Of a DNA stretch of 64,000 nucleotides, positions 28,544 to 54,172 are shown piece after piece. The stretch's first letter is position 1, and the number at the start of each line of letters is the position of its first letter. Source of the stretch: Nitrososphaerota archaeon. Its GTDB lineage: Archaea; Thermoproteota; Nitrososphaeria_A; Caldarchaeales; Caldarchaeaceae. The DNA lies in assembly GCA_041641305.1 (NCBI GenBank), contig JBEPYN010000002.1:352001-416000 (forward strand), read 5' to 3'. A model generated the notes under the pieces. That model had not been told where the DNA came from. It ran no database searches and saw only the letters and a list, made by a program, of their open reading frames with translations. A program made the position numbers and the translations under genes.

Positions 28544-28549
28544 CTCCTA

Positions 28550-29090: not shown

Positions 29091-29112
29091 GGCCAATCTA
29101 TTGGCCGGTGGA

Positions 29113-31087: not shown

Positions 31088-31116
31088 TGGAAGGTAATTA
31101 ATGATTCTTCTGGGAC

Positions 31117-31132
31117 TGTCAACATGTTGACG
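31117..31132. repeat. 16-bp palindrome copy TGTCAACATGTTGACG
   Basis: Direct reading; just after the last gene of the pilus/FtsZ operon. Confidence 0.9.
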
Positions 31133-31150
31133 GTTTCGAGCAGCATAGTG

Positions 31151-31627
31151 TTAGCGCAAGTCTGCCCTGGCCTCTAGCAGCGGCGTCTTGAGGAGCTGTG
31201 GTAGCCGGAACGGGCTGAGGCAGGCTTCGCGTAGGTCCATTATCCTGCCGCCGCTCAGCCTCCTTATCGCGAGGCTATTCTCGTAGCTTTTTATCAAGGT
31301 AGGGGGGTTTTTGAGCCTTATCTCAACACCTTCCTCAAGTGGTGTGGGGATGAGCGTTATGTCTACCATGGTGTAGACACCGTCCCTCACCTGCCTCAGG
31401 CTCTCCAGACTTGGTACATTGATGTTTTTGAAGACTTTGTAGACGCTGTCCCTCTTCATGCTTATGTCGAAGTGGTACTGCGTGGCTGGGCAGTACATCC
31501 TCACCCTCGTCCCACCTCTCTGCACCTCCATGCTTATGGCGCCGAGCTTTTCCTTGACATGGTTCCAGAGTAGCTCGACGCGTCTGTCGCAGTTGATTTT
31601 CCAGAAGCTGAACTCCAGTTCACTCAT
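31151..31627 (-). CDS. Hypothetical protein, last gene of the operon
   Basis: ATGA overlap with the upstream gene. Confidence 0.7.
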   Translation of the reverse strand: MSELEFSFWKINCDRRVELLWNHVKEKLGAISMEVQRGGTRVRMYCPATQYHFDISMKRDSVYKVFKNINVPSLESLRQVRDGVYTMVDITLIPTPLEEGVEIRLKNPPTLIKSYENSLAIRRLSGGRIMDLREACLSPFRLPQLLKTPLLEARADLR

Positions 31628-34600
31628 CCCCCGTCAACCATATCTTCACTTGCCTGTTTATTATCTTCTGAGGCCTTGGCGAGGCCGAGCGCCAGCAACA
31701 CCGCTCTGGCTTCCCTTCTGTCCTGTGATGTTGCAGGCGAGGTAACTGCTTTCAAAGCCTTCTCGAACAGGAACACCAGCCTTTCATCGGCAAGCCTGTC
31801 CATCAGAAGACGTCTAAGGGCGTGGTCGCCTTCTACAAAGGCGTCTGCTAGGCCGGGCAGCAGCGCCTCCGCGGGGGCCAGTAGCTCGAGGTATGGATGT
31901 TTCTCACGTAGCTTTTTCGCCACCTCTTCGACGCCGAAGTCTATCCACACCCTCCGATAGCCAGACGCCTTGAGCTCATCAAGTATCTTGGAATGTGTTA
32001 TCAGCGGGTACCCTCTGGTTAGTGCTATCCTTAGGCCTGAATCCATTATATGCTTCATATACTTGCCGTCGGGCTTGGCTCTCCTGCGGATGAGGTTGGA
32101 TGAGAAGACTGCTAGGGTCACGACAACTATAACAGGCCCTGTTATCTCATCTATTTTGGAGAGTTCGCTGGCCGTTATGACTCGGTAAGGCGCGTCTGAG
32201 AGCAGGTTTTTCATGATTTGGTCAGGCAGGGTCGGGGCCTTCGCGACGTCGTCGACGAGGTATGCGGTCCATTTCTGTGGAGTAGCCTTGAGAAGGTCTT
32301 GGAGCCTCACCTTGGCCCTAGCCTGCTCAGGCCCCTTCTTCTCGGCCTCAGGTACTGGCTTAGGATGACCGGTCTCTCCTTTCTCACTGATAGTCTCCTC
32401 CTCAGCCTGCTCAAGGGCTGCCCTGTATTCGTTTATCGCGAACGGGATTACGGAGCTTAGGCTTGTTATGAAGCTGGCGCGGTCCCCATCTGTTGGGAAC
32501 TCGCGTCTCTGCGCCAGCATGTTGGCGGCCCTGTACGCCGCCTTGTCGACGTCAGGTTCATGGGCCACGCTTTCAACAGCCTGCCTCAGCTCATCTTCAT
32601 CAACCAGCCCCTCTATGTTGTTTATTATCCACCTCGGTATCTCCCACCGCGGCTTTGTAGCGGCTTTGCTCTCGACTTGTTGTGTGGGCTCTGACTCGGC
32701 ACGGCTTTCCACGGTCTCCTGAGTCGGCTTAATCGTCGGGAATTGGACTGGCATGGGCTGGATGATGTGCTCCTGAGCTGGCTTAGATTTTATGGAGTGT
32801 GTCTCTTCTGTGTCGCCGACCTCAGGTGGCTTGGATGGTGTTGGCGGCTGCGGATGCTCTGCGGGGGCAGTCGGCGGCTCCTCATGTGTATGTATAGGCG
32901 GCTTAGATGTTTCGGGCTTTGGCTGGGGAGGCTGTGGTTGTTGAAGTCGTGGTTTTTCAGAGGTCTCAGCGGTTGCCGGGGACGTGGGCTTAGGTATCCT
33001 CGTCCTAAGCTGCGTCAGCATCTCTCTGAGGTGTCTCCCCTCTGCCGCCGCCTCTTTCGCCAATGCTTGTCTCTCGATTAACGCGCCGCAGCTTATGCAG
33101 TACCTTGTCTTCGGAACCGTTTTGCCGCAGTGTGGACACACCGTGTTAACGGCTTTCTCCTCCTTGACTGGTTTGGGTTTCGATGTCTCAGCCTCCTCCG
33201 TCACTCGCCTTTCTTCGACCTGCTCAACCTCCACCTTGGAGGCATGCCGCAGAAGCCTAGTCCCGCATGATATGCAGTAGGCGCTGCCGGGTCTCACCTT
33301 GGCGCCGCATGACGGGCACCTGTTTGAAAGGATGGTTTCGACGACTTCTTCAACGAGCACCGCGATTGGTTTCGGCGGGTTCTGCATCACGTGTTCGACG
33401 CCTTCCACTCGGAGTTCTTCGGAGAGTTCTTCCAGCTCATGTTCCTGTAAAGCCTTCAGCTCCGGGTCTGTCCACAGTAGTTCTATGTTTCTGTCCGCTG
33501 ACTCGCTGCTGCTTACCACGGACATTTTCTTGACCCATGTGTTCAACACCCGCTGGCTCGCGGGAGCGTATCCCCTGTAGGCCAGCAGGGTTGTCAGGAG
33601 GTGTCCCGCCCACATTCCCTGGTTGAACGCCGTCTTCCTACCCATCGCCTCATACTCGTATATCAGGTAGAGCCGTTGGTGGATATCGCGTGCCGCGTCC
33701 AGCTCCTCGAGCAGCTCCGCCATCGCCCCCTCATCTACGGCCTTTAACAACGCCACCAGAGTCCCGGCAGAGAGCGGCCTGTAACGGTCTATCAGCTCGA
33801 GGAGGAGTTTGTAGCCTTGGCTCGCCCATGCGAGATTTGTTTTCAGCACATCGCTAACCCATTTCTCCTCCACCTCTCTGCGGCTCTTCTCCCTTTTCCG
33901 CGAAGACGTAACCATTCTGTAGACCACGGCTGCCGCGGCTGCGGCGCCTCCTCCACCGACCACAAGCGGCAGGTCGTTGAAGTGTAGTAACCGTGTCGAG
34001 CCTATGGCTATGTAGGGGCAGGGGTTCATTTCCTCGAACACGGCTTCTATGGTCACGAATCCCGCTGGCACGTTTATCGCGACGCTCTCTGTGTAAACGG
34101 CCTCCAGCGCCTTCAGCCCGGTCCACTTCACAAGACGGCCGCAGCCCTCGGGCACGGCCTCCAAGTAGACCGTCGTGTCAGGGGCTATCACACCTTCCCA
34201 GCGAGGAGTTCCCAAAACCTCCCCGGTTATCGGTTTCGTCGATACCACGACCTTGCCCGGTCCTCTAGCGATGACGGATAGGTAGGCAAAGTCTATTAGC
34301 TGGGGCGGTGGGCTGGAGCCTTTTCTCTCGGCTGAGAGCGTGAGCGTGCTGTTCTCCTCTGCCGTGAATATGTATACCTCGCTTTTTGACACGGCCTTGT
34401 CGCCCTGCATCCACCCCGCTATGTAGCACTCCTGTGCAGGGGTGGCTGATAGCTCTGCTTGGCTCCCCTTTCTCCACGGCCCGGCTATATATGAGCCGTT
34501 GACATAATTGACAGGCGCGTTTGCGGTCACGTTGGCGACGCAGCCGGGGTTGGTAGGGGTGATTGTTACGTAGACCGGCGGAGGCCTGCTGTATGCAAAA

Positions 34601-34956
34601 GTTATCCTAACAACGTTAACTCCTTTCTTCATGACTACGTCGACGTAGAGTTTGCCCGCCTCTATGAACGGGCTGCGGGCCAGCTCCCCCTCTACAGAGG
34701 CTCTGCAGCTAAGGTCTTTGAGCTGGATTATTATCGAGGCGAGGGCGCCGCTGGATGCGGCGACGTATCTGCCGGGCTCGGCCGGCGTCAACATGTTGCC
34801 GTCCACCACCACGTTTGCCACACATTCGGGCTCGTTGATTATTATCTCCAGCGATGTTTCCTGTGCATGGGATGGGAAGGTTATTACTGGGGCGGCTGCT
34901 AGGATGAGTGTTAGAAGCATTAGAAATATTCTATACATAGAGCCTCGCGCCTCCAA
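31624..34956 (-). CDS. Large bitopic membrane protein: beta-repeat ectodomain, TM, two zinc ribbons, Pro-rich linker, alpha/beta C-terminal domain
   Basis: Signal peptide; L.A.P..C....W repeats (InlB-B/Flg_new-like); CPSCG..C.SCG and CPHCG..C.SCG. Confidence 0.85.
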   Translation of the reverse strand: MEARGSMYRIFLMLLTLILAAAPVITFPSHAQETSLEIIINEPECVANVVVDGNMLTPAEPGRYVAASSGALASIIIQLKDLSCRASVEGELARSPFIEAGKLYVDVVMKKGVNVVRITFAYSRPPPVYVTITPTNPGCVANVTANAPVNYVNGSYIAGPWRKGSQAELSATPAQECYIAGWMQGDKAVSKSEVYIFTAEENSTLTLSAERKGSSPPPQLIDFAYLSVIARGPGKVVVSTKPITGEVLGTPRWEGVIAPDTTVYLEAVPEGCGRLVKWTGLKALEAVYTESVAINVPAGFVTIEAVFEEMNPCPYIAIGSTRLLHFNDLPLVVGGGGAAAAAAVVYRMVTSSRKREKSRREVEEKWVSDVLKTNLAWASQGYKLLLELIDRYRPLSAGTLVALLKAVDEGAMAELLEELDAARDIHQRLYLIYEYEAMGRKTAFNQGMWAGHLLTTLLAYRGYAPASQRVLNTWVKKMSVVSSSESADRNIELLWTDPELKALQEHELEELSEELRVEGVEHVMQNPPKPIAVLVEEVVETILSNRCPSCGAKVRPGSAYCISCGTRLLRHASKVEVEQVEERRVTEEAETSKPKPVKEEKAVNTVCPHCGKTVPKTRYCISCGALIERQALAKEAAAEGRHLREMLTQLRTRIPKPTSPATAETSEKPRLQQPQPPQPKPETSKPPIHTHEEPPTAPAEHPQPPTPSKPPEVGDTEETHSIKSKPAQEHIIQPMPVQFPTIKPTQETVESRAESEPTQQVESKAATKPRWEIPRWIINNIEGLVDEDELRQAVESVAHEPDVDKAAYRAANMLAQRREFPTDGDRASFITSLSSVIPFAINEYRAALEQAEEETISEKGETGHPKPVPEAEKKGPEQARAKVRLQDLLKATPQKWTAYLVDDVAKAPTLPDQIMKNLLSDAPYRVITASELSKIDEITGPVIVVVTLAVFSSNLIRRRAKPDGKYMKHIMDSGLRIALTRGYPLITHSKILDELKASGYRRVWIDFGVEEVAKKLREKHPYLELLAPAEALLPGLADAFVEGDHALRRLLMDRLADERLVFLFEKALKAVTSPATSQDRREARAVLLALGLAKASEDNKQASEDMVDGG

Positions 34957-35947
34957 TAAGTACTGTTACGCTTGTCTTCTCGGCGTCAGGCCTCTTGGCT
35001 AGTAGCGTCTTCATTTCCTTGACCTCTGCTCCAAGAATCGTGGAGAGCTGGCCGGGTATTGCTTCTATGTGTTGTGGCGACATGGTTCCTTTTCCGGTTT
35101 CGATGAAGGCAATGACTCCTAGGCTTCCGCGGCCCCGTACGACGGAGACTAGGGAGCTGGAGTTGTGTTGGGATAGGCTGTGTATCTCGTCGGGTGTAGG
35201 TAGGAGCCACTGCATGGCTAAGACGAGCCCACGCAGCATTCTTCGCAGGTCGCTGCTGTCGATGTCTGTTATCGACCTGCCGCTGCTCATTGTTCGGAGG
35301 AGCGTGGACAATGGTTTAAGCATCTTCTCGTTTACTGTATTCAGCGCCTTGGTGATGTCGATGCTTTGTATCTCTTGGATGAGGTATGAGTTGCTCGCCG
35401 GGATGACCGGAGCATGTTTAGCCGCCTCCTCAAGCGCCTTCACAGCCCGTTTATACGTCTCTCTCCCCTCCCATGGGAAGGGAAGGGTACATATCCCGAG
35501 GATGCATGAACTGGGGTAGTGTTTGACGAGGTCCTGTATCAGGGCTGGTCCCGCGCCCGAGCCGCAGCCGAAGCCAGCCGTGAATATGACTGGTATCAGG
35601 TCTATTCTCTCCATTCCCTTCTCCTCCGCAACTTTCTTCGGCAGCTCAATTATCGCCCTGCGCGAGGGGTGGTCGAGATAATCTCTTCTACCCTTGTCAG
35701 GGTTCATCCCGCTTCCGGTTCCGTCTCCGATGACGTAAAGGTGTTTGTCGACGTAGGCTCTGAGCCTCTCTATGTCTGCTCTGCTGCTGCTTATGCAGAC
35801 GGGCTCGGTGGCTGGAAGCGTGTTTAGGAGGCGCCTGCCGCCGGGGGCGACCCCTTTCACAAGGACTGCCGCGAGCTTGCTTCCACCGCTTCCAACTCCG
35901 TAAACGACGGGAATGGTTAGAGGTTGGTGTGTTTCTCCAATGCTCAT
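34931..35947 (-). CDS. Divergent FtsZ/tubulin-superfamily GTPase
   Basis: T1 GVGSGGSKL, T3 GSGMNPDKG, T4 GFGCGSGAGP (for GGGTGTGAAP), TLPFPWEG, T7 DIDSSD. Confidence 0.85.
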   Translation of the reverse strand: MSIGETHQPLTIPVVYGVGSGGSKLAAVLVKGVAPGGRRLLNTLPATEPVCISSSRADIERLRAYVDKHLYVIGDGTGSGMNPDKGRRDYLDHPSRRAIIELPKKVAEEKGMERIDLIPVIFTAGFGCGSGAGPALIQDLVKHYPSSCILGICTLPFPWEGRETYKRAVKALEEAAKHAPVIPASNSYLIQEIQSIDITKALNTVNEKMLKPLSTLLRTMSSGRSITDIDSSDLRRMLRGLVLAMQWLLPTPDEIHSLSQHNSSSLVSVVRGRGSLGVIAFIETGKGTMSPQHIEAIPGQLSTILGAEVKEMKTLLAKRPDAEKTSVTVLIGGARLYV

Positions 35948-36228
35948 TCGTCGAGCACCTCCATTAACTTGAGAAACGCCTCCAAGTGACCTTGGTAACC
36001 ATCCCTATACATCATCTCGGCCGCTTTCCTGAGAATATGGGAAGCGATGACGTGGGCTGTGAAGGGACGGCTCCGCTCTTCGTTGAAGAAGTGTTTTATC
36101 CGGGTTACCGCTTCCTCGGGCTTGGTGTGCTCCGTGATGTAAAGTATGTCTGGGAGCTTTGGGTAGATGCTTCTACATGCCTCGGCTATGTATGATGATA
36201 GGATGTTTTCATGCACCGGCTTCTGCAT
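35944..36228 (-). CDS. Small helical protein coupled to the FtsZ-like gene
   Basis: ATGA overlap with the GTPase gene. Confidence 0.7.
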   Translation of the reverse strand: MQKPVHENILSSYIAEACRSIYPKLPDILYITEHTKPEEAVTRIKHFFNEERSRPFTAHVIASHILRKAAEMMYRDGYQGHLEAFLKLMEVLDE

Positions 36229-38557
36229 GCAGGCTCACCCCCAGCTTCTGGAGCTTGTTGAGGAAGTTTCTCCAAGCGGCTTCGGGGTTGCCGCCGGAGG
36301 TCACCTGTCTATAGGCTGTGACGTAGAGGTCTCTGGCCTCGCCGTAGCTCATGCCGTTGACAATCTTCTTCGCTATCTCGGCCTCGAAGCCTGGGAAGGT
36401 TTGCCTGAACTCTATCGCCCAAATGCTGTCGAGCGCAAGTTCTGGCGGCGCCCCCTCCTCCAGCATCTCTATGAACGAGGTCACCGTCGCCGAGCCTCTG
36501 AACATCTCCGCCATGTTTACAAGCTCGGTGAACTGGCTGTAGTCAAGTCTCTGCAGCAGGTTCTTCTCCGCGAGCAGGCTAGCCACTATGGCCGGCGTCT
36601 TCGAGCTCGGTATCGGCGGGAAAGTTATCTCGCCTTTTTTGCCGAGGGCTACGATGAGCAGGCGAGCTGACGCGGCTGCTTGCGCAAGCCACGGCGAGCC
36701 ACGTGTCTCGATGACCACTGTGTCGGCACCCTTAGCCAGCTTCTTCAGCTCGGTTGCGGCGGCGTCGGGGCTTGGTGGAAGCACTATGTTTCCTATGAAG
36801 GCGGCTTTTCTCCCCGCTTCTCTGAGAGCCTGTTCAACAGCTCTGCGGGTCAGAAGCTGGTCTCCCACTGCCACGGTTATCAGGCCTACCTTGACACTGC
36901 TCGCAAGCCTCTGAAGCTGCTTAGCCTCTCTCATGTATATGGCCGGCTTCTCGTCCGGTTCAAGCTTCACGTATCCCTCGGCGACTGCGTTGAAGATGTT
37001 CTCGTCGAACCGGGTTAGCTGGAGAAGCGACGAGGGCGCTGTTATCCGCCTATGCCTCTCGACAGCAACCTTCTCCAGCTCCTCGACTTTATCGAGTGTC
37101 TCCAGCTCCTCCTCGGCGAGAGCTGTCTCCTCCTCGTCCGGCTCGCCCTCTTCAACGGGGTTCACCAGATTGACGTTGTCCATCATCTCAGCCAACGGCT
37201 CAGGCGCCTTGAACACCGCTGAGGCGGGCGGCTCGTTGCCCACTTCGATAATCTGTATAGCTGGTGGTCCTCTGTCAATTATGGGTGCGATGCGGCGCCT
37301 CAGCCCGGCAGCCGTCCTCACCCCGCCGGCCACCGCTGCGCGTAGACTGCTTGCCGAGGTTTTTCTCGCGAATATGTAGGAGCCTGCGGCTGCTGATGCG
37401 AATATGGCTATGGGCGACGCCAGCGCGAGGGGATATGGTAGTGTCATGGGCTGTGGGTGGAGCAGAGCCAGTATCCTGTAGCCCGCCTCCGCGAGGCTGT
37501 AGAGGGCTTCGCCGACGACGGGTATGTTCAGTAACGCGGCGTGTCCCTTCGGCTTATACATGAGGGTTATGTAGAGCGGTTTCTCTAGCTTAGCAACCAC
37601 GGTCTCCATCTCCTGTGAAGAGGGTGTGAACAGCCTGTCTCCAACCGATACAGCGGACATGTAGGCCTCCTTCATCGCCGTTGGAGCCTCTACCACGACG
37701 GTCTTCCCCTCTCTATCAATCAGCTTGATTTGGGAGGCTATCACCAGCTCTTTGCCGTTGACGATTACAGAGACCGGCACGGGGGAATCGGCCTCGAGGA
37801 TGTAGGGGACGTATGTGTAGTAGACCGGCTCGATGAGGCTGAGCAGGGGCTCGGGCACGGGCTGGATAGGCAGCGTAACGTTGTATCCCATTATCCTGAT
37901 GGCCTCGGCTCTTTGCACACGTCCATCCGGGAGCTGGATATCGGGGAAGACCGGTCTCTTGAACAGGTAGAGCGGATAGTACTCGTCTAGGAATTTCCTG
38001 TAGGCGTAGAAGTTGGCGACGAGGGTTATGCTCTTGTTCACTTTCATGGATGAGGTTGGCGAGTCTATCCTCAGCCCGTCTGGTCCCTCCCAGTAGAGAA
38101 AGATGTACTTCATGTCGCCTTCGAGCACCTCTCTCTGCACGCTGAACTCGACTGTTTCGCCGGGCCTGACTATCCTCGGCTTAGGCAGGTTCAGCATGGT
38201 AGACGATATGTTGGCCGCGAACGCCACGTACAGCCTCGGTATAACGCTGCCGTTTTCCCTGTAAAGCCTCTCGAAGACCGCGACAGCCTCGATGTTGCCG
38301 AAGACGTAGAAGGTGAACGGGTTGGCAGACACTTCTCTGGGAAGCCCGCCTCCAGAGAAAACCCACTTGGAGAACCGGCACTCGGTCGTCGGCCTCGCCT
38401 CAATCGTCGCCTGCACACCCTCTCTGTAGAGCCCGGCTCCGATGAGGGCGGCGGCGCACTCCGCCGGCGACGCTGAAAGGCTGACGCTGTACTGAGCCTC
38501 TTGCGCAGGTGACAGGGCCGTCGCAATCAGTAGAAGCACCAGCATAACATGTATCAT
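36209..38557 (-). CDS. Large bitopic membrane protein with beta-repeat ectodomain and alpha/beta cytoplasmic domain
   Basis: Signal peptide, G.G.Y.EG..ATIEA.P...RF.KW repeat, TM, acidic linker. Confidence 0.85.
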   Translation of the reverse strand: MIHVMLVLLLIATALSPAQEAQYSVSLSASPAECAAALIGAGLYREGVQATIEARPTTECRFSKWVFSGGGLPREVSANPFTFYVFGNIEAVAVFERLYRENGSVIPRLYVAFAANISSTMLNLPKPRIVRPGETVEFSVQREVLEGDMKYIFLYWEGPDGLRIDSPTSSMKVNKSITLVANFYAYRKFLDEYYPLYLFKRPVFPDIQLPDGRVQRAEAIRIMGYNVTLPIQPVPEPLLSLIEPVYYTYVPYILEADSPVPVSVIVNGKELVIASQIKLIDREGKTVVVEAPTAMKEAYMSAVSVGDRLFTPSSQEMETVVAKLEKPLYITLMYKPKGHAALLNIPVVGEALYSLAEAGYRILALLHPQPMTLPYPLALASPIAIFASAAAGSYIFARKTSASSLRAAVAGGVRTAAGLRRRIAPIIDRGPPAIQIIEVGNEPPASAVFKAPEPLAEMMDNVNLVNPVEEGEPDEEETALAEEELETLDKVEELEKVAVERHRRITAPSSLLQLTRFDENIFNAVAEGYVKLEPDEKPAIYMREAKQLQRLASSVKVGLITVAVGDQLLTRRAVEQALREAGRKAAFIGNIVLPPSPDAAATELKKLAKGADTVVIETRGSPWLAQAAASARLLIVALGKKGEITFPPIPSSKTPAIVASLLAEKNLLQRLDYSQFTELVNMAEMFRGSATVTSFIEMLEEGAPPELALDSIWAIEFRQTFPGFEAEIAKKIVNGMSYGEARDLYVTAYRQVTSGGNPEAAWRNFLNKLQKLGVSLHAEAGA

Positions 38558-38564
38558 CGCCGCG

Positions 38565-40403
38565 TCACCCGTAGTGGAAGATGCTCATCATGGAGTTGCC
38601 CACCGGCACTATGGCGTAGTAGCTGGCGGCGGTCACCAGCATCGCCACAGCTATCCTCAGCATGTTGTAGGGATGTCCGTCGACGGCCCGTCCTATTATC
38701 AGCATGTAGAACAGGGTACCCATGGCTATCATCACCATCCCGGCGTCGGCCATCATCATCATTTCCTCGGGGGTTGTCTGGGCTAGGCCTATTCCTGCTC
38801 CTGCGCCGCCGGCGATGGCGGCTCCCTCGCTCGGTATCTGGAGTATTGAGCCAAGGTTCGCGATTGGCAGAACCATCCCTATCGTGACAGCGGTTATCAG
38901 CGGCATGGCGAGGGCCAGCCATTTGAAGGGCGAGAGCCTGCCCACCATCTTCTCCCTCGCGAGGCTGTAGCCTCTGAGCAGCTCCACCAGCTTGTCCATC
39001 AGGTAGGGGCTGCCGCCGCCCGAGAGGTTTATGCTGTGTAGCAGGAACAGCGATATTCTGAGGAGCCAGCTCCGCGTGATGCCCGCGCCCGCCTCCCAGA
39101 TAGTGAACCCCATCGACATACGCGCCACTATTGCGTCGAGTATTTTCTTGAACTCAGGCGCATACCTGTGTCCTGCTGTCTTGAGGATGGCTGTTGACGG
39201 AGGGTTCCCCAGTCTCCTGAACTCGGTCACGTCCTTGAGCCAGCGGCGGGACTCCGTGTCGCATGCCTTGAGCTCCTTTATCAAAGGCCTCATCTGTATA
39301 TACACGCCTATACACGCCGCGGCGAGGGGTATGGTGAACATAAGCGTCATCGGGGCCTTTGCGAGCATGAGTGGGGGAAGCGTGGCCACAGCCATGGCTG
39401 CGCCAAACGCTACGGCTTTCGGTGTCAGCTTGATGTCGTCGAGATGCTTCGGGCTCTTGCTCCTCACGAAGAAGTACATTAGCATGCCGACCATGGGGAT
39501 TAGCCCGACTGTCATGAACGTGACGAGGGGAGCGGCCTGCGCCGGGCTTGTGACCGCTGTGAGCACTATGCCCATGGGGAGGAGGAGCAGAAGTATTATG
39601 AACGCCTCCATCACCGCTGACACGGTTGTCGCGAAGCGGTCGTATTTTTCCTCGAGGCTTTTAAGCAGCTCCGTCGCCCTGTCCTCCAGCACCGACACCA
39701 TGCTTCCACCCATCCGCCAGACGCTGGTGGCCGCGAACACTAGGTTCTGGAACCCATCGTGGGGGTGTGAGGAGGCGTGGACCTCTAAGCTCTCTATCAC
39801 GCCTCTGCCGGTGAGCTCGGCCATTCTCTGAACATCCTCGGCCTCCTGCGACATCTGGCTGAAGAGACGTTTACCGGTTTTGGTCAACAGCTTCATGCTA
39901 GCGTAAAGCGTGAGCCCGCAGTGTGCTAGAATCGAGGAATATACTGCGAAAAACGGGAGCTCCCACTCGGTCTTCTCCTTCCTCTCACTCGCTTTGCTTC
40001 TGAGAAGTAGCTGATTCATTCCTGCTACTGAGAGGGGTGCAGCGGCTAGGGATGCCAGCAGCATGTGCGGCCCAGGCCCGGCTATGAATAGCGTGTATAT
40101 GCATGCCGCGGCTATGGCTGCCGCGAGGGCTGTTGCCGAGGCTAGGTGGGCGGCCATCTCCTCCGCGACGTCGTAGGGGATGCGCTTCAGCCCCGCCTTC
40201 TCGCAGAGCGTCGTCGCCGTACGCAGAAGCTTCTCCGAAAGCCGGGGAACCGCGGCTGAGCCTGCGGCCACTGCTGCGAAGAAGAGCGGGATGGGTAGCA
40301 GGTATTCCGGGCCGCCGGGGCCAAGTATCTCCATGTAGATTATCCATATGGCGGCTGCGGCTGCTGCAACGATGAGGTAGATTATGCGTGGACTCATCTC
40401 CAA
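38565..40403 (-). CDS. Type IV pilus platform protein (TadC/ArlJ, T2SS-F family)
   Basis: Duplicated ELP.F / G.P..A.. cytoplasmic domains plus multiple TMs; directly follows the ATPase. Confidence 0.85.
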   Translation of the reverse strand: MEMSPRIIYLIVAAAAAAIWIIYMEILGPGGPEYLLPIPLFFAAVAAGSAAVPRLSEKLLRTATTLCEKAGLKRIPYDVAEEMAAHLASATALAAAIAAACIYTLFIAGPGPHMLLASLAAAPLSVAGMNQLLLRSKASERKEKTEWELPFFAVYSSILAHCGLTLYASMKLLTKTGKRLFSQMSQEAEDVQRMAELTGRGVIESLEVHASSHPHDGFQNLVFAATSVWRMGGSMVSVLEDRATELLKSLEEKYDRFATTVSAVMEAFIILLLLLPMGIVLTAVTSPAQAAPLVTFMTVGLIPMVGMLMYFFVRSKSPKHLDDIKLTPKAVAFGAAMAVATLPPLMLAKAPMTLMFTIPLAAACIGVYIQMRPLIKELKACDTESRRWLKDVTEFRRLGNPPSTAILKTAGHRYAPEFKKILDAIVARMSMGFTIWEAGAGITRSWLLRISLFLLHSINLSGGGSPYLMDKLVELLRGYSLAREKMVGRLSPFKWLALAMPLITAVTIGMVLPIANLGSILQIPSEGAAIAGGAGAGIGLAQTTPEEMMMMADAGMVMIAMGTLFYMLIIGRAVDGHPYNMLRIAVAMLVTAASYYAIVPVGNSMMSIFHYG

Positions 40404-42193
40404 CCGCGTCTAGCCTCCGACACGTAGTAGTGGAAGGCCGCGGCGTTCATCCCCTTTCTCACGCCCTCCTCGATTGCGTCGACTCGGTGGATGAGCTGTT
40501 TTGAGACGAACTCCTCGGTGAAACCGGTCGCCTTCATGAACCACTGCAGCTTCGGGCTTTTCCTCAGCACCTCGTACACGTCGTTCGGTGCGAAGCTGTC
40601 GTCGGATGCGTTGTACCTGAATATGTCGATGACGTCCATGCCCTCTGGCTTGGCTGGGTCGGGTAGTATCTCGGACACCGCTATGACGCGGCGCGCTCTT
40701 CCCGTGGGCGTGTCTTGGAAGCTGGTGATGCAGCAGCCCCATAGGAAGCTGAGCATCGCTTCCGACATGCCGGTTTTCCTGAGCATGAGGGCGAGGCGTG
40801 AGTAGAATTCTCTTGGGCTTCCCGCGTGGAAGGTGAAGCCTCCCCCGTGTCCGGTGAAGGCGCTTTTCAGCAGGTAGTAGACCGACTCGTCTTTCCTGAC
40901 CTCGCCTATGACGAGGTAGTCGGGCCTCATCCTCATGGCTATGTCTATGAGCTCGGACTCGCTTATCTCCATCTGCCCAGCCGCTATCATGGCCGACCTC
41001 CTGCCAGTGAGGGGGAGCCAGTGTCTCTGCGGTATGTTTATCTCGAACGTGTCCTCTATCGTGATTATCTTGCTGTTGGGGTCGAGGCAGGCTAGGAGCG
41101 CGGTGAAGAGCGAGGTCTTGCCGCTTGCCGTCGGCCCAGCTATCCCTATCAACGCCTTGTTCTCTAAGGCGAACCATACATAGGCCGCCATGAGCGGGGT
41201 CAGCATCTTCATGCTCACGAGTCTTGGAAGGCTCCAAGGGTCGGTGGGCCACTTTCTTATGGTGAATGTGGGGCCGAAGGCTGACAGCTCTCTGCCAAGT
41301 ATGCCGGCGAACCTGCTGCCGTCTGCGAGCGGGAAGTCGGCGTATGGTTTATGGAGCGTCATGACGGTGTTAGCCCTGTGGGCGTGCCTGTTCATGAAGT
41401 CGTTTATCTCATCATCGGTCTCGAAGACTATGTTGCTCCGCAGGTAGTGGAGGTGGCCGAAGTCTCTATGCGCTATCATGACCGGGATGCCGGGGCCTAC
41501 GCAGGAGATGTCCTCGACAGCCGGGTCGTTGACAGGCACGTCCACCGGCCCATAGCCGAAGACGTTTCTAGTCACGTAGTACTTGACCTCGAGTATCCTG
41601 TCCTGCGTAGGCTCGATACCGAGCCTCTTCAGCTTGTCGGCTATGATGCTGTTTACGAGCTGGTCGAGGGCGAGAGCCTCCGGCCTCTCCTCGGCCCTGC
41701 CAATCCTCATAGGCTGGCGCACGGACTCGACAGCAGGCAGCTTAGCCTCCCTGAATAAGCTGTCCAAGGTCAATGCATACGCGAGTCTTCCCTCGTTTGA
41801 GATGGGTGGCTCGGTGACGAGGTATAGCCCGAAGGTCCCCATCTCCGCTATCCGCACCGAGGCGAGGCCGACATTGTAACGCTTCAGGGTCTTAGCTCCC
41901 TTGACATCCTCCGGCTCCATGAGCGGGCTCGGGAGCGGTAGGTTGGCCATGAGGAACTGCTGGAGAGCCCTCAGAATATTCTCCGCCTTCAGCTCTCCCT
42001 TTACCTTCGGCTTCTCCGCTTTCGTCTTCACAGCTTTCTCAGGCTTCGGGGCCTTTTCCTTGACCTTTGCCTTCTCAGGTGTCTTCTCGGGGGCGGCGAG
42101 ACTCCTGCCACACGTGGGGCAGAAGCGAGAGCCCTCGGGAAGCGCCTCGCCGCAGGAGGGGCATTCTGTGAGAACGGTTTCTGCCCTGCTCAT
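40394..42193 (-). CDS. Type IV pilus/secretion ATPase (TadA/ArlI/VirB11 family) with N-terminal zinc ribbon
   Basis: GYGPVD..DP.VEDIS, FTIRK, GPTASGKT, ITIEDT.E, MRMRPD.LVIGEVR, TGH...TFH motifs. Confidence 0.92.
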   Translation of the reverse strand: MSRAETVLTECPSCGEALPEGSRFCPTCGRSLAAPEKTPEKAKVKEKAPKPEKAVKTKAEKPKVKGELKAENILRALQQFLMANLPLPSPLMEPEDVKGAKTLKRYNVGLASVRIAEMGTFGLYLVTEPPISNEGRLAYALTLDSLFREAKLPAVESVRQPMRIGRAEERPEALALDQLVNSIIADKLKRLGIEPTQDRILEVKYYVTRNVFGYGPVDVPVNDPAVEDISCVGPGIPVMIAHRDFGHLHYLRSNIVFETDDEINDFMNRHAHRANTVMTLHKPYADFPLADGSRFAGILGRELSAFGPTFTIRKWPTDPWSLPRLVSMKMLTPLMAAYVWFALENKALIGIAGPTASGKTSLFTALLACLDPNSKIITIEDTFEINIPQRHWLPLTGRRSAMIAAGQMEISESELIDIAMRMRPDYLVIGEVRKDESVYYLLKSAFTGHGGGFTFHAGSPREFYSRLALMLRKTGMSEAMLSFLWGCCITSFQDTPTGRARRVIAVSEILPDPAKPEGMDVIDIFRYNASDDSFAPNDVYEVLRKSPKLQWFMKATGFTEEFVSKQLIHRVDAIEEGVRKGMNAAAFHYYVSEARRGWR

Positions 42194-42195
42194 GG

Positions 42196-42879
42196 CTACG
42201 CCACCAAGTAGATGTGTGACTCGTAGGCGGCTGCCATCGCGGCCACCAGCACCGCGTAGAGAAACAGCCTATGAGAGCCTCGGTAGGCCTGCGCCAGCCT
42301 TCCTAGTCCATATCCATCGCCGCATAGAGCTTTGGCGGCCACGTATGTCGGAAACGATAGGGACAGGGCCTCGAGCGCCAGCAGCGGAGCCAGTATCGGG
42401 TATTCGGCGCCTACGCCTCCCATGGTGAACCCGTTCACAGCCATGGGTGCGAGCGCTGATACGAGGATGAATTTCTCATGCCTCCTACCTATTGGCTTGG
42501 GGCGGCCTCTTCCCTCCATGACCATGGCGAGCGGCATGACCGCGTGTATCGCCGGAACCAGCGAGATAGGCCTCATGTTGCTGAGCAGTATGGCGGCGAC
42601 CATTGAGGGGGGCGAGGGCTTCGCCGGCTTCTCATATGATGGGTTGATTGCGGCCTCTATTGTCTCGGCAGCCGCCTCGACCTGCCTCGGCACGTCTGGG
42701 ACGATGGATACCCCTGGGGCGACTGTTGTTGACCTCGACAGCGACTGGACGAAGGCTGGAAAGGCTGTGGCGAAGCCTGCTCCGGAAAAGCTGGTGAGGA
42801 GGAGGCTGAAAACGGCTCCAGATGCTATGGAGCCGAGTGTGAGGAATGCTGTTAATATCAGCGCCGTATACAGAGGCAT
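42196..42879 (-). CDS. Membrane protein, SpoIIM-like
   Basis: Multi-TM with conserved-looking N, NG, E and terminal AA.YES. Confidence 0.55.
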   Translation of the reverse strand: MPLYTALILTAFLTLGSIASGAVFSLLLTSFSGAGFATAFPAFVQSLSRSTTVAPGVSIVPDVPRQVEAAAETIEAAINPSYEKPAKPSPPSMVAAILLSNMRPISLVPAIHAVMPLAMVMEGRGRPKPIGRRHEKFILVSALAPMAVNGFTMGGVGAEYPILAPLLALEALSLSFPTYVAAKALCGDGYGLGRLAQAYRGSHRLFLYAVLVAAMAAAYESHIYLVA

Positions 42880-42942
42880 TCACCTCCGTGAATGCCTTAA
42901 CCGCCTAAGGTGTATTTATTGAGATAAGGCGTGGCCGTGTTC

Positions 42943-42958
42943 TGTCAACATGTTGACA
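42943..42958. repeat. 16-bp palindrome copy TGTCAACATGTTGACA
   Basis: Direct reading; upstream of the promoter variant GCCTTATCTCAATAAAT. Confidence 0.9.
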
Positions 42959-42968
42959 GCCCCGCTGT

Positions 42969-43577
42969 TTAGCTGACTGCCTCATATGCCTCGACCGCCG
43001 CCGACAGGGTTAACAGCAGCAGGATTATGGGCAGATACTTTCTAACCATCTTTCTGTACCTCTGTGCGAAGCTGTCGGGCTCCAGCTCAGAGGCCTTGTC
43101 CACGACCGCGGCTGCAAGGAGAACGTGTATGCCCTCAAGCAGCATGAAGGCTGCCGGGCCTCTTACGGCCAGTACCGCGGGTATCTGTACGGCGAAGCCT
43201 GCGACATACATGATGGCTATGACGGCCATCATCCTGCTGTAGAACCTCCATCCCACGTCACCGGACCACTTGTGAAAACGCGTCCCAGCCCATCTCCGGC
43301 TCAGCCGCATTCCGTATGCGGAGTGGATTAGGGGCGGCGACGCCAACACCGCTGCCAAAGCTATCGAGTTGTTGAACATTATTGCGGCAAATGCTGACAA
43401 CAACGTGTTCCCCGTGGCAGGGTACACTATGGAGAAGGCCATCATGGTTCTGCCGATGAGGACCAGCCCCTGGGGCGAGCGTAGTATGATGTCGAGGAAG
43501 TTGGGCGGCCCTATCAACATGCTGGCCGCAGCCGACGCCGCCATGGCGAGCATGAGGCATAGGATTAAGCGCTTCAT
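42969..43577 (-). CDS. Membrane protein, SpoIIM-like
   Basis: IMFNN, LE and LLLLTLSAAVEAY pattern. Confidence 0.55.
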   Translation of the reverse strand: MKRLILCLMLAMAASAAASMLIGPPNFLDIILRSPQGLVLIGRTMMAFSIVYPATGNTLLSAFAAIMFNNSIALAAVLASPPLIHSAYGMRLSRRWAGTRFHKWSGDVGWRFYSRMMAVIAIMYVAGFAVQIPAVLAVRGPAAFMLLEGIHVLLAAAVVDKASELEPDSFAQRYRKMVRKYLPIILLLLTLSAAVEAYEAVS

Positions 43578-44764
43578 GTTCTAAGCCTCTTGAGGATGCT
43601 GGCTATCTTGGGGATTAGCTCGAGCCGCGTCAGCCTGGGTTTCAGAAGCCCCATGGAGTAGAGCGACTGGATGAACATGGTCGACAGGGCTGCGAACCTC
43701 AGCAGCGCCATTGACTGGGTCAGGCTCCACGGCATATGGGGCGCGGGTGTTGAGAACCATGTCAGGAGTATAGCCGTGTTGGAGAGCTCCCATAGGGCGA
43801 AGCCGGGCATCAACAATCCCGAGGCTGGGAGAAACGGTAGGAGGAATATGTTTGTCTGGGGGCTGTACCTCGGCGTGAACAACATGTACGACATGGCGGC
43901 CAGCATCATGAACTTGCCCGGCTCCAGCCTGCTCCTAAGCACGTAAAGGTACAGGATGGATACGCCGATTAGCCCGAAGAGAATGGCTGCTCCGAGGCCG
44001 GGGGCTGTGTTGGGCCCCACGGGAGCGGCTGCGTCGGGGAACAGGTGTACGTACCACGCGTTCTCCAAACTCCATCCAGTCTGGGCCTCTACCACGGCTC
44101 TGTATGCCTCTGGAAAAGCGAGGATGGGTGGCAGGGCTACAGCCGCGAATGTTGCGAGATACTTCAGCCTCTCCCTGCCTTGAAGCCTCAGGATGGCGTA
44201 GGGGAGAAAAAGTATGCTGAGAAGCTTGGTGTGGAACCCTAGGGCTAGAAGAGCCGCTGAAACCGTATACCTGCCTCTGGCGAAGGCTAGGACGGACAGG
44301 GCTGTCAGGGCCGCGAGGAATACGTCATAACCGTATATCCCATATACAACCAAGCTGGGCGCGACTAGGTAGACGAGTGTGTATGCGCTGTCTCCGGAGA
44401 GCTGCGCCGCGGCATACGCCATAGCCACAGCCGACGTGAGCACCATGGCTGAGTAGGCGAGGTAGAACCCTACCATGTCTCCGCCAATGCGCCATGCTAT
44501 GATTGATAACGCTCCTGAAAGAAACGGGTACTCGAAGTGTTTCCCGGTATGGTCAGGCTCCACGTAGGGTATCCTGCCTGCTTCAGCGAAGTCACTCCAG
44601 AAGAAGCCCATGATGTCCGTGTATAGGCTGGGCTGGATAAATGGGGAGTGCAGTAATATGCCCAGCCCGATTGTCGAGCACGCCACCATTATCTGTAGAA
44701 GCGTCTCCCTCATATCCACGGGACCTCGCCTAGTCCTAGGCTTCCGAGGAGCTGTATCAGCCAC
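43574..44764 (-). CDS. GT-C glycosyltransferase (GT87-like)
   Basis: YTDI, IPY, FEYP, YD, K..., SPQ motifs; multi-TM. Confidence 0.75.
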   Translation of the reverse strand: MADTAPRKPRTRRGPVDMRETLLQIMVACSTIGLGILLHSPFIQPSLYTDIMGFFWSDFAEAGRIPYVEPDHTGKHFEYPFLSGALSIIAWRIGGDMVGFYLAYSAMVLTSAVAMAYAAAQLSGDSAYTLVYLVAPSLVVYGIYGYDVFLAALTALSVLAFARGRYTVSAALLALGFHTKLLSILFLPYAILRLQGRERLKYLATFAAVALPPILAFPEAYRAVVEAQTGWSLENAWYVHLFPDAAAPVGPNTAPGLGAAILFGLIGVSILYLYVLRSRLEPGKFMMLAAMSYMLFTPRYSPQTNIFLLPFLPASGLLMPGFALWELSNTAILLTWFSTPAPHMPWSLTQSMALLRFAALSTMFIQSLYSMGLLKPRLTRLELIPKIASILKRLRT

Positions 44765-45969
44765 TCGGGCTTGGCTGGGTAGAACATTATGAACCAGAGT
44801 ATCTGGGCTGCTAGGAATACCTTGAAGGCTATGGGTGGCAGGTGCTTGTCAAAGATGAGGGGAAGGGTTGCTGCGAGTATAGGCGATACTTGGAGGAAGT
44901 AGAAGCTGTATGTCCATCTCTTGGCGACATAGGCTAGGAACGCGAATGCTCCGAAGTTTACCGCGAACCATCCTAGGGAGATTGCTTCGGGGCTTGGGTT
45001 GTGTATCTTCGAGGATTTTATGACTCCGTACGCGATTGGGGCTATCAGCCAGATGCTCCACCAAAGCGGGCTAGAGACTCCCCAGAAAGCGACTGGATGG
45101 TATCCGGGCGGGGATACCGTGTTTACGAAGTATGGCGCAGGCTGCCTAGTTATGGGAGGTATAATCCATGAAAGGGGTAGCTCAACCTTCCATGGCTCGA
45201 AGTACCTCAGGTTTGTGTGGTAGCTCAGCATGAAGTCGAGGTGGTGCAGCGGCGTGGGGAACACATGTGTCTGCGAGTCCCAGAGGGCCACGCCCGCGAA
45301 GAAGACAAGCAGGGCTGGGAAAGCGTAGAGCCTCACACCCCTCCTCAAGGCCTCCACGGCCCTGTCAAGGTCCCTCGTCTTCCCGTACTCGTGTACGGCT
45401 TCCAGCGCCATCAGAGTGGGTATGATTAGTATGCCGCTGCTCTTTGACAGCAGGGAGAGGCCTGCGGCGACTCCTGAGAGAAGCTTCCTGCCCGACACGT
45501 AGAGGTAGGCGGAGAACACCATGAAGAAGATGGAGGGAGGGTCCAGTATTCCTATGCCTCCCACATTGAAGAACGTCACGTCGGTGAATAGCAGGAGCTG
45601 GGCAGCTATGGCGTACCTGTCTCCGCCTAGCCTCCTCGCGACAAGCCCCACCAACGCTATGGTCAGCGCAGAGAAAAGCACCATGGGAATCCTCCAACCC
45701 CACGGGTTGTCCCCCAAAGCCATGATGCCCAGCATGATTACCCACTTGCTGAGAGGGGGGTGCTCAAGGTTCACAGCCTGGCCCATCAGCATCTTCCTTA
45801 CGGCCGGTATGTAGTGGGCCTCGTCGAAGATGAAGCCGCAGCCGTCGAACGGCGGCTCGAGGCACTCTAAAGGATGTTTCAGTGGGCTGGCTAATGGTAT
45901 GAGAGATAGCCTAAGTCCTAGGTATATCAGGGGCACTATAGTCAACCGGATGAGTTGGTTTGGTTTCAT
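44710..45969 (-). CDS. Protein O-mannosyltransferase-like (PMT/GT39)
   Basis: IFDEAHY, EHPPLSK, PWGWR, ILD, SK.SG, W.....P..YF, Y.FY motifs. Confidence 0.85.
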   Translation of the reverse strand: MKPNQLIRLTIVPLIYLGLRLSLIPLASPLKHPLECLEPPFDGCGFIFDEAHYIPAVRKMLMGQAVNLEHPPLSKWVIMLGIMALGDNPWGWRIPMVLFSALTIALVGLVARRLGGDRYAIAAQLLLFTDVTFFNVGGIGILDPPSIFFMVFSAYLYVSGRKLLSGVAAGLSLLSKSSGILIIPTLMALEAVHEYGKTRDLDRAVEALRRGVRLYAFPALLVFFAGVALWDSQTHVFPTPLHHLDFMLSYHTNLRYFEPWKVELPLSWIIPPITRQPAPYFVNTVSPPGYHPVAFWGVSSPLWWSIWLIAPIAYGVIKSSKIHNPSPEAISLGWFAVNFGAFAFLAYVAKRWTYSFYFLQVSPILAATLPLIFDKHLPPIAFKVFLAAQILWFIMFYPAKPEWLIQLLGSLGLGEVPWI

Positions 45970-52284: not shown

Positions 52285-53253
52285 CTAGCTCACCACCACC
52301 GAAGTTACAGTCACGGTGGCCGTGGTTGTTGTAGTGACCGTGGGTCTGATGCTTACGCTGGTTGATGTCAATATGTTCCACCAATAGGACATAGTTGTTG
52401 TGGTGTACGTTGTGGTAGAGTATGTTGGGAGTGTGGCTGTCGCAGTGTATGTCGTGGTGACTGTTGTTACGGAGGGTAGTGTTGTCGTTACCTTGGTGAC
52501 GTACCACATGGTCCATGGAGTCGCGAGGGTGTCAAGCGAAGTGGTTGTCGTCGAACCTATCTGCTTGGGTATCACAACCGTTGTAAGGTATGTTGCCGTC
52601 GCTAGGTTAGCTTGGTAGGGCGTATAGTAATAGTAGTAGATATAGGTTCTTGTTGATGTCGTGCCGTAGTAGCAGGATAGGCATAGGGTCAGTTTCTGGG
52701 TTATTGTTGTGGTCGAGTATGTCGTCTGTAGTGTCGGAGCCGTCCAAGTAACGTAGTACGGCGTGTATGTGGTGTAGTATACTGTGGTGCTCCTTGTCAA
52801 GACGTATCTGGTCGTGACGCAGCAGCTCGTCGTGTATGTCGCCGTGGCGACTTGGAGGCCCGGCTTCTCCTTGAGAACCAGCTTGAGGCTCCCCGTGCCC
52901 TCCAGCTCGGCTGCCAGTGCTTGGGCGTCGCCGACTAGGACCGATGCCTTCTGGCCGGGCTGTATGGTTATCGGCGGGTTGAGCACCACTTCCCCCGTCT
53001 CCGTGAAGAGCTTGGTCAAGGTAACCGGCGCCGCCCCGTCGTTGGCTATTATCGCTCTACCATCTATCAGAGCCACTAGGCTCAGCTTGGCTCCGGCCAG
53101 CTTCTCGGCTTCGCCAACCTCCTCAACAGCAGCTCTCTGGACGAAGACCGTGTTGGGCAGGTGCATGGATAACGTGAAGGCAACTATCATAACGGTGGCG
53201 GCTAACGCGACTATCGAGGCAGCCGACTGAGAGATTCCTCTCCTGCTCTTCAC
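52285..53253 (-). CDS. Pilin-like protein with very Thr/Tyr-rich C-terminus
   Basis: RRG/ISQ class III signal. Confidence 0.8.
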   Translation of the reverse strand: MKSRRGISQSAASIVALAATVMIVAFTLSMHLPNTVFVQRAAVEEVGEAEKLAGAKLSLVALIDGRAIIANDGAAPVTLTKLFTETGEVVLNPPITIQPGQKASVLVGDAQALAAELEGTGSLKLVLKEKPGLQVATATYTTSCCVTTRYVLTRSTTVYYTTYTPYYVTWTAPTLQTTYSTTTITQKLTLCLSCYYGTTSTRTYIYYYYYTPYQANLATATYLTTVVIPKQIGSTTTTSLDTLATPWTMWYVTKVTTTLPSVTTVTTTYTATATLPTYSTTTYTTTTMSYWWNILTSTSVSIRPTVTTTTTATVTVTSVVVS

Positions 53254-53693
53254 CTCATGCTCACCTCCACGCTGCCTATGATGAATGTTGGAATGCTTCT
53301 ATGGGTCAGGGCTCTGGCCTCAACTATGTAGACCCCTCCCGAGGAAACGCCAGAGACTATGAAGGTGTCGCTCCACGATGTTGAAGGCTTGAGCGCCTCG
53401 TCAACTCCTCTAACGAATAGTTCGTTGGAGCCGCTGAGGAGCCTTATGCTCTGAAGGGTCACGGGCTCTTTACCGATGTTGTAGACCGTGACGGTCAGCA
53501 GCCCCCCGTCTCCGAAGGGCTCTAGATGAGCTGAGACGAGGAGTCCCGTTGATGTGGCGGCTGGCGCCGTCCTGAAGACGCCGGCCGCAAAAGCAACCGC
53601 CATAGCCACTATGGCGGCAAATGTGAGAACAACAGCCGCGATAACCTCGCTTAAACCATATCTCGGAAAAAAAGAAGAGGAGTTTTTCCTCAT
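53250..53693 (-). CDS. Archaeal type IV pilin
   Basis: RYG/LSEVIAAVVL signal, V.NIG motif. Confidence 0.8.
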   Translation of the reverse strand: MRKNSSSFFPRYGLSEVIAAVVLTFAAIVAMAVAFAAGVFRTAPAATSTGLLVSAHLEPFGDGGLLTVTVYNIGKEPVTLQSIRLLSGSNELFVRGVDEALKPSTSWSDTFIVSGVSSGGVYIVEARALTHRSIPTFIIGSVEVSMR

Positions 53694-53694
53694 C

Positions 53695-54162: not shown

Positions 54163-54172
54163 TCCCTCACCT

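Follow-up and report, generated by a model that had tools for sequence, protein, structure and literature searches.

Among the prokaryotic members of the tubulin superfamily, FtsZ is known for its part in cell division, CetZ for cell shape, and TubZ and PhuZ for the segregation of DNA. The subject of this analysis is a 338-residue FtsZ/CetZ-like GTPase, referred to here as FtsZl, whose gene lies in a type IV pilus-type operon within a 64,000-nucleotide stretch of archaeal DNA (the window, G000:C2:352001-416000). The genome is 1.66 Mb in size and 99% complete, and the closest database proteins come from Candidatus Caldarchaeum sp., which belongs to the Aigarchaeota (Nitrososphaerota) and lives in hot springs.

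That CetZ genes are linked to loci for type IV pili (T4P) has been in the literature since 2007, although no mechanism is known to have been worked out. The survey PMC4858521, citing Szabo et al. 2007, places an FtsZ-family gene (arCOG02202) in the clade 1 T4P loci of most Thermococci, and arCOG02202 genes also stand beside the subclade 4F T4P loci of Halobacteria (PMC4858521). CetZ2 co-localises with the 4F locus (PMC13705601), and CetZ1 has been implicated in positioning of the archaellum or motility machinery (PMC11621097). Co-regulation was put forward as a cautionary reading of the CetZ genes in T4P loci by Makarova et al. (PMC4858521). When the Thermococcus radiotolerans neighborhood was re-examined, a cyclase gene was found to be followed by CetZ and then by pilin-like genes. 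An earlier note on this DNA knew of no tubulin homologue described as a component of a pilus operon; the published CetZ/FtsZ-family genes at archaeal T4P loci (PMC4858521, PMC13705601), seen again in T. radiotolerans, contradict that remark. The Thermoproteota family described below, its giant partner proteins and its island context are not described in the T4P papers (PMC4858521, PMC13705601, PMC11621097), the FtsZ/tubulin survey PMC9871819, the FtsZl1/FtsZl2 paper PMC2875224 or the thaumarchaeal mobile-element survey PMC6563490, all of which were within the scope of the literature covered.

The GTPase gene in its operon and in related loci

The tightly coupled run of eight genes that had been claimed is present in full, as eight co-directional open reading frames (ORFs) read on the minus strand from 42879 to 31151. 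The successive junctions are +2, -10, +7, -20, -4, -26 and -4 nt (negative values being overlaps), so that the spacing ranges from a 26-nt overlap to a 7-nt gap. The first gene encodes a 227-aa membrane protein (42196..42879) that has homologues in two related loci (L034, L036). The earlier description of this protein as SpoIIM-like was dropped because it has no Pfam or NCBIfam match. The labels given to the next two products were sound. A 599-aa secretion ATPase of the FlaI/PilB type, which carries a Zn ribbon at its N-terminus (40394..42193; PF00437, 85.9 bits; NCBIfam FlaI, 213 bits), is followed by a 612-aa PilC/FlaJ-type (TadC/UpsF-type) platform protein with about 10 transmembrane segments (38565..40403; PF00482, T2SSF), whose best named match is NCBIfam UpsF at 200.9 bits. 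The core of an archaeal type IV filament (T4F) system is thus present. The remaining genes encode a 782-aa bitopic protein (Fam782, 36209..38557), a 94-aa protein without a transmembrane segment (P0020, 35944..36228), FtsZl itself (P0001, 34931..35947) directly downstream of it, a 1110-aa bitopic protein (Fam1110, 31624..34956) and, last in the unit, a 158-aa basic cytoplasmic protein (31151..31627). The start of the 1110-aa protein is more likely the ATG at 34938, which gives an 8-nt overlap as in the related locus L063, than the TTG at 34956. Gene order and family matches therefore agree with the claim that the GTPase is an integral part of an operon of the type IV pilus kind, where its gene stands between those of two bitopic giants.

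Conservation of this linkage goes far beyond what chance would give. At least 10 independent contigs, with identities as low as 33%, encode FtsZl directly behind homologous giant membrane proteins, and the pilus ATPase and PilC genes lie upstream of it wherever the contig extends far enough. Conservation in relatives had been posed earlier as a point on which the proposal could fail, and the arrangement proved to be kept to about 33% FtsZl identity. Two gene orders were found. In type A, represented by the window, L063 (83% FtsZl identity) and L034 and L036 (62-64%), the order is the 227-aa protein, ATPase, PilC, Fam782, small protein, FtsZl, Fam1110 and the 158-aa protein. In type B (L001-3 and L064) it is ATPase, PilC, Fam782, Fam1110, a six-transmembrane protein, small protein, FtsZl, an 80-aa protein and a protein of 163-187 aa, and the 158-aa protein of the window is kept in both types. 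A contig from a Bathyarchaeota metagenome-assembled genome (L052) carries ATPase, PilC, Fam782, Fam1110 and FtsZl, the last at 33% identity, and on five shorter contigs (L048, L056, L046, L066, L067) one or two giants end at the FtsZl start. The small-protein gene lies directly upstream of FtsZl in every Caldarchaeum-clade locus examined on that side. The recurring partner families are three, namely Fam782, Fam1110 and Fam709. The Fam709 gene of the window, for a 709-aa surface protein with a C-terminal anchor (59603..61732, minus strand), stands 24 kb from FtsZl, and its homologues lie directly upstream of FtsZl in L046, L066 and L067.

The type A and type B islands were compared over the backbone (L001 against 24017-29878 of the window) and the pilus module (31151-43577). 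The backbone, comprising HerA-like, NurA and neighboring genes, is 91-97% identical, whereas the pilus module is only 25-43% identical, which gives the module the look of a swapped or fast-evolving cassette. FtsZl, at 64% between the two island types, is the most constrained part of it.

With pilin genes, pilin-like proteins and glycosyltransferases upstream, the operon forms the assembly end of a pilus locus that spans about 23 kb. Four pilin genes (52285..54631, minus strand) lie 10 kb upstream on the same strand. Their class III signal peptide-like N-termini (a charged stretch, K/R-G, L/I-S and a hydrophobic helix) were read from the sequence and have no hidden Markov model match. The interval that separates them from the ATPase encodes pilin-like proteins and two glycosyltransferases of the GT-C class, one GT87-like and one PMT-like, which share 42969..45969 (minus strand) with a 202-aa six-transmembrane protein. 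The latter travels with the module, its homologue in type B loci standing immediately before the small protein. No Peptidase_A24 match (class III signal peptidase, PibD/FlaK) was found in a scan confined to proteins of the locus, and no PilT-type retraction ATPase was evident in family scans of the operon proteins. The genome carries at least three further strong T2SSE ATPases elsewhere, and the GTPase accompanies only this system.

A second set of surface proteins is encoded at 59080-63951. It consists of the Fam709 protein, a 742-aa protein whose repeats are Ig/CarboxypepD_reg-like, and a membrane protein of 178 aa that bears a Zn ribbon (59080-59616). Homologues of the 742-aa and Fam709 proteins adjoin FtsZl genes in other organisms (L046, L066, L067, L053). 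Zn-ribbon modules also recur on the cytoplasmic side, in the N-terminus of the ATPase (40394-42193), in a double ribbon of Fam1110 (31624-34956) and in the 178-aa protein, and may represent a shared interaction theme. Double Zn-ribbon proteins have been noted before in thaumarchaeal T4P loci (PMC4858521).

FtsZl, its family and its membrane partners

A family alignment of 26 sequences was used for the structural model of FtsZl and for the motif survey. The AlphaFold model (pLDDT 91.8, pTM 0.92) contains both the GTPase and the C-terminal activation domains. It matches the two-domain FtsZ/tubulin fold and aligns with CetZ and FtsZ chains at Z 29-32 along some 300 residues, and Foldseek gave template modelling (TM) scores of 0.75-0.8 to many FtsZ structures. 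In the VIA-align ranking Haloferax volcanii CetZ1 (Z 31.6) and CetZ2 (31.3) are effectively tied with FtsZ (30.9). The PF00091 match is narrow (34.7 bits against a cut-off of 33). On the predicted model, FtsZl was confirmed as a real FtsZ/tubulin-fold GTPase.

The T1 (GSGG), T3 (GxGSGMxPxxG) and T5 (PFxxEG) motifs and N186 are invariant or nearly so, and T6 is also conserved. D230 and D233 of the T7 loop, which the alignment places at E. coli D209 and D212, show no variation across the 26 sequences. Such an acidic pair, together with a whole C-terminal domain, is expected of GTPases that are activated by head-to-tail contact, as in the biochemistry of FtsZ and tubulin. The T4 box of the family reads G-[FH]-G-[CFT]-G-S-G (GFGCGSG in the window protein), and SSS or NSS replaces the N-T-D of FtsZ. 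The altered motifs that had been claimed are therefore present and conserved in the family. The absence of a C-terminal tail was also borne out: the chain ends at residue 338, 4 residues past the last strand, and the flexible linker and C-terminal anchor-binding peptide of division FtsZ were not found in it. The isoelectric point (pI) of FtsZl is 8.2-10 in the pilus-linked clades.

FtsZl is not a canonical division FtsZ. It scores 35.8 bits on the ftsZ equivalog model TIGR00065, for which the cut-off is 295.2, and the Pfam scan gave no match to FtsZ_C (PF12327) and none to CetZ_C (PF21011) at E <= 0.01. The genome has a separate canonical FtsZ (L044; C2:247824; PF00091, 163 bits) that falls in the FtsZ clade. 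An exhaustive search of 1.8 billion representatives returned only 21 clusters at E <= 1e-10, and in the profile search the members scored at least 289 bits while the next proteins, ordinary FtsZ, scored at most 87. Trees were built with FastTree and in a smaller IQ-TREE quick run; the outgroups were labelled by ftsZ score and by one named Thermococcus CetZ (P0194), as NCBIfam has no CetZ model. The family forms one clade (SH-like and SH-aLRT support 97), separate from the FtsZ clade (99), and the proposal thereby also survived the earlier condition that a grouping with division FtsZ would count against it. The Thermococcus protein, the sole named CetZ in a tree with poorly supported deep branches, falls outside the FtsZl clade. 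Against solved structures, the family profile matched Methanosaeta thermophila CetZ (3ZID) best, at 118 bits (E 4e-33); the best FtsZ scored 85, H. volcanii CetZ2 68 and CetZ1 60, RepX 57, TubZ 38 and tubulins 35 bits. Because the profile prefers 3ZID, yet the FtsZl clade excludes the named Thermococcus CetZ, we call the protein CetZ-like but not CetZ on these sequence comparisons. The best explanation is that FtsZl is the founding member, as seen here, of a distinct and small family of FtsZ/CetZ-like GTPases in Thermoproteota.

Several related genes deserve mention. In other Thermoproteota (L011, L012 and L023, from genomes G339, G191 and G345), divergent FtsZ-like genes of about 325-345 aa occur as tandem pairs and form their own clade beside canonical FtsZ. 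One same-genus genome has a second small-protein and FtsZl pair away from pilus genes (G050:C41; L035 6271-7556). In another (G206:C36; L037 4608-5586) the FtsZl gene is interrupted by TAG and is probably a pseudogene. A further member lies at 9980-10984 of L070, a virus-like contig of 100 kb and 34.5% GC (IMG/VR UViG_3300027899_001695), where it is 94.6% identical to the family protein P0035 and scores 366 bits against the family profile. It belongs there to a replication module of viral type that also encodes DnaB, a primase of the DnaG type, PolA, RecA, a PD-(D/E)XK nuclease and a ribonucleotide reductase. This context suggests that another branch of the family may be in PhuZ/TubZ-like use.

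Fam782 and Fam1110 each have a signal peptide, an InlB-B-repeat-like ectodomain, one transmembrane segment and a long cytoplasmic part. The transmembrane segment of Fam782 lies at about residues 377-395. Its cytoplasmic C-terminal 288 residues were modelled (pLDDT 82) as an alpha/beta domain with a helical lid, the best matches of which were all AAA+ proteins (RuvBL, Orc1/Cdc6, RFC, DnaA), with borderline Z scores of 8-9.6. This domain lacks a Walker A motif and may tentatively be regarded as a degenerate AAA+-like scaffold. Fam1110 has an Ig-like ectodomain and a weak G/A-rich transmembrane segment near residues 331-349. On the cytoplasmic side it carries the double Zn ribbon, a linker rich in Pro and Glu, and a conserved C-terminal domain for which no relatives could be detected. 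A profile-profile comparison of Fam1110 with the cytoplasmic domain of Fam782 showed no kinship (probability 0.3%); the only trait that the two sequences share is the InlB-B-repeat-like motif of the ectodomain. Sequence searches of the 158-aa protein, the small-protein family and Fam1110 against solved structures gave nothing useful.

The cytoplasmic parts of the giants have pI values of 5.1-6.1, and six of eight homologues of the 94-aa protein fall at 4.7-6.3, P0020 itself being at 6.3. The opposite charges of the basic FtsZl and the acidic giants and small protein would fit electrostatic docking. A complex prediction for FtsZl with the 94-aa protein scored 0.00, which counts neither for nor against binding.

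Island context and the proposed role

A palindrome with the core GTCAACATGTTGAC lies at both ends of the operon, at 31118-31131 and 42944-42957. The upstream copy is a perfect palindrome of 16-18 bp (42942-42959), just upstream of a promoter-like GGCC...AATAAATA box and the first start codon; the second (31116..31133), with its 14-bp perfect core, stands between the operon and the next gene. The core occurs 13 times in the window, where 0.01 sites would be expected by chance, and 19 of the 20 sites in the genome lie within 82 kb (C2:354026-435449). The palindromes at the operon ends noted earlier are thus real but not specific to the operon. The element looks like the operator of an island-wide regulon, and it would bracket the operon because it is sited in intergenic promoter regions, not as a mark of filament-moved DNA. 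The suggestion that a filament acts on palindrome-marked DNA was accordingly abandoned, as nothing links the two. A one-mismatch version, GTCAACATGTTGCC, was seen at 34787-34800, inside the 5' part of the 1110-aa gene and about 130 nt past the FtsZl stop, and could be an internal operator or a chance match.

Genes for VirB4-like, VirD4/TrwB-like, ParB, Hel308 and RadA-like proteins lie 14-32 kb beyond the end of the window, and further copies of the palindrome flank the RadA-like, ParB and Hel308 genes. After these three come, in L061 (G000:C2:436001-448000), the VirB4-like protein of 936 aa (DUF87 and AAA_10), the VirD4/TrwB/HerA-like protein of 771 aa and a 1328-aa protein without a family match. 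No tyrosine integrase (PF00589) was found anywhere in the genome. Since the palindromic operator is common to the pilus operon and the DNA-transfer region, the two are on one mobile, conjugation-type island and probably answer to a common regulator.

In the reading that is preferred here, the island would encode an Ups-like machine for type IV pili and adhesion, and FtsZl would be its dedicated cytoplasmic component. Because both catalytic T7 aspartates are kept, FtsZl is proposed to assemble on the cytoplasmic face, in dependence on GTP, into head-to-tail oligomers or filaments. As it is basic and lacks a C-terminal tail, the co-translated giants (Fam782 and Fam1110, elsewhere Fam709) are proposed to tether it to the membrane through their acidic cytoplasmic domains, and the small upstream protein, which is acidic in most homologues, may modulate the assembly. 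FtsZl would thereby gather the pilus platforms and the adhesin domains of the surface into clusters, set their position or brace them mechanically, and the pilus would probably mediate cell-to-cell contact in the service of the DNA-transfer genes of the island. We infer the membrane coupling, the polymerisation and the contact role from gene context and conserved residues. Taken whole, a GTPase that assembles with GTP, is held by the giants, is tuned by the small protein and organises or braces an Ups-like contact pilus for island DNA transfer is a proposal in which we place middling confidence. A stronger form, in which FtsZl and the giants couple a GTP-driven filament across the membrane to the adhesin domains and brace the mating junction of a conjugative island, is speculative and on balance unlikely. 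If true, it would be a cytoskeleton-powered contact organelle without a described counterpart in prokaryotic conjugation.

Several observations weigh against a dedicated pilus function. FtsZl is present in only three of ten other genomes of the same genus, one of the copies being broken by TAG, and is therefore dispensable. The small-protein and FtsZl pair also occurs without nearby pilus genes (L035, L065). A third subclade, made up of singletons in Methanomethylicia and Nezhaarchaeales and the virus-like contig, is not pilus-linked, so a pilus role is not a property of the whole family; a T2SSE ATPase was looked for beside the Methanomethylicia and Nezhaarchaeales relatives and was not found. 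The T4 box of the family has two departures from GGGTG[ST]G or [SAG]GGTG[SA]G (G to F/H and T to C/F), and nucleotide handling may differ in consequence. Finally, the gene neighborhood may reflect co-regulation only.

The last point can be stated as an explanation in its own right, in which FtsZl acts elsewhere, perhaps on cell shape as CetZ does, and has nothing but a promoter in common with the pilus genes. This is the reading that Makarova et al. offered for CetZ in T4P loci (PMC4858521), and the different neighbors of the third subclade agree with it. However, the place of FtsZl between the giants, with overlapping stops and starts, is kept over about 33-97% identity and in two gene orders, and a gene that is absent from most genomes of its genus is not a housekeeping shape factor; mere co-regulation was judged very unlikely. 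The location on a mobile island raises a different possibility, that of a TubZ- or PhuZ-like filament for DNA segregation with the small upstream protein as a TubR-like adaptor. The small gene always precedes FtsZl, the pair stands alone in L035 and L065, and one family member belongs to the replication module of the virus-like 100-kb contig. Yet the family profile gives only 38 bits to TubZ against 118 to a CetZ, and FtsZl has neither a C-terminal tail nor the long H11 helix. The small protein is mostly acidic and has no helix-turn-helix match in the Pfam scan or the structure-database search, no iteron or other direct-repeat array was seen when the flanking intergenic sequence was read by eye (a dedicated repeat search was not made), a ParB is encoded on the island itself, and in two subclades FtsZl is wedged between membrane-protein genes with start/stop overlaps. 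A segregation role for the window protein is accordingly very unlikely in our judgment.

Two other explanations were weighed. FtsZl could be a regulatory GTPase switch that is activated by dimerization, forms no filament, and gates the assembly or retraction of the pilus by way of the pseudo-AAA+ domain in Fam782. The altered T4 box, the missing tail, the resemblance of the Fam782 domain to a Walker-A-less AAA+ module (RuvBL, Orc1, RFC) and the lack of an evident PilT-type ATPase in the operon all fit such a switch; the AAA+ match is borderline, however, and the apparatus for longitudinal contact, a hallmark of polymer-dependent GTPases, is fully kept in the T7 loop and the complete C-terminal domain. 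We regard the switch as unlikely. Alternatively, FtsZl and the giants may, as a mating-junction or membrane-remodelling device, shape or stabilise a bridge between cells through which the conjugative island transfers DNA, the pilus serving only to gather cells. The VirB4-like and VirD4-like ATPases, ParB and the recombination genes under the same operator are in its favor, as are the adhesin-like ectodomains of the giants and the hypervariability of the pilus module between nearly identical backbones, which would be expected of a determinant of contact specificity. No fusion or bridge proteins were recognised, though, and simple positioning of the pilus fits the arrangement equally well, which leaves this device unlikely as well.

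Comparison with known systems

FtsZl resembles division FtsZ in its two-domain fold, in the T7 loop with both acidic residues and in the Foldseek scores; it differs in the low TIGR00065 score and in having neither FtsZ_C nor a C-terminal peptide. With the TubZ/TubR/tubC system and PhuZ it shares a position on a mobile element with a small gene directly upstream, and the differences lie in the weak TubZ profile score, the absent tail, the mostly acidic small partner and the membrane-protein context.

In the Sulfolobales, Ups pili aggregate cells for Ced-mediated DNA exchange. The present system is similar in that a T4P whose platform protein matches UpsF best shares its DNA with genes for transfer ATPases of the VirB4-like and VirD4-like kinds, and it differs in being island-borne. 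We know of no tubulin homologue or giant bitopic protein described for the ups or ced loci.

The FtsZl1 and FtsZl2 proteins of Makarova and Koonin 2010 (PMC2875224) are likewise divergent FtsZ-like families for which membrane-associated partners were predicted from gene context. FtsZl1, however, is about 1000 aa long, with a coiled coil, an unrelated C-terminal domain and a linkage to vWA, OmpA and P-loop GTPase genes (PMC2875224), whereas FtsZl is a compact, complete FtsZ fold with other neighbors.

The clade 1 T4P locus of Thermococcales, which also has a squalene cyclase (Szabo et al. 2007, as cited in PMC4858521), similarly places a tubulin-superfamily gene among proteins with class III signal peptides. 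No PF00437 or PF00482 match was recorded within 10 kb of the gene in T. radiotolerans, homologues of Fam782, Fam1110 and Fam709 are absent from the locus, and the tubulin belongs to a different clade. Furthermore, that locus is chromosomal and, in the same account, present in "most Thermococci", whereas FtsZl is patchy within its genus.

CetZ itself is the closest counterpart in several respects. It is an archaeal, non-division protein of the FtsZ/tubulin fold, 3ZID is the best profile match of FtsZl in the PDB, CetZ1 and CetZ2 (4B46 and 4B45) gave the top structural Z in a tie with FtsZ, and CetZ genes likewise neighbor T4P/T4F loci (PMC4858521, PMC13705601). FtsZl differs in having no PF21011 match, which the Thermococcus CetZ has, no tail, an altered T4 box and a pI of 9.2 as against 5.0 for the Thermococcus protein. 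It also differs in its occurrence in Thermoproteota, on a mobile island, and in its translational coupling to bitopic giants.

The FtsZl locus is real, conserved and experimentally attractive. It is not a categorically new idea, because CetZ genes beside T4P loci have already been published in Thermococci and haloarchaea. With it the family tree of FtsZ and tubulin gains a distinct clade from Thermoproteota, and the arrangement kept in distant relatives suggests an internal filament linked to a surface pilus or adhesion machine. The compact tail-less family, the coupled giants and the motor in the same operon make the pilus role of a tubulin homologue directly testable with a few soluble domains, the cytoplasmic domains of the giants being obvious tether candidates. 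Compared with the CetZ-T4P loci described so far, FtsZl, in an operon with the pilus motor and on an island with DNA-transfer ATPases, is a much tighter and more explicit case of a tubulin homologue at a pilus machine.

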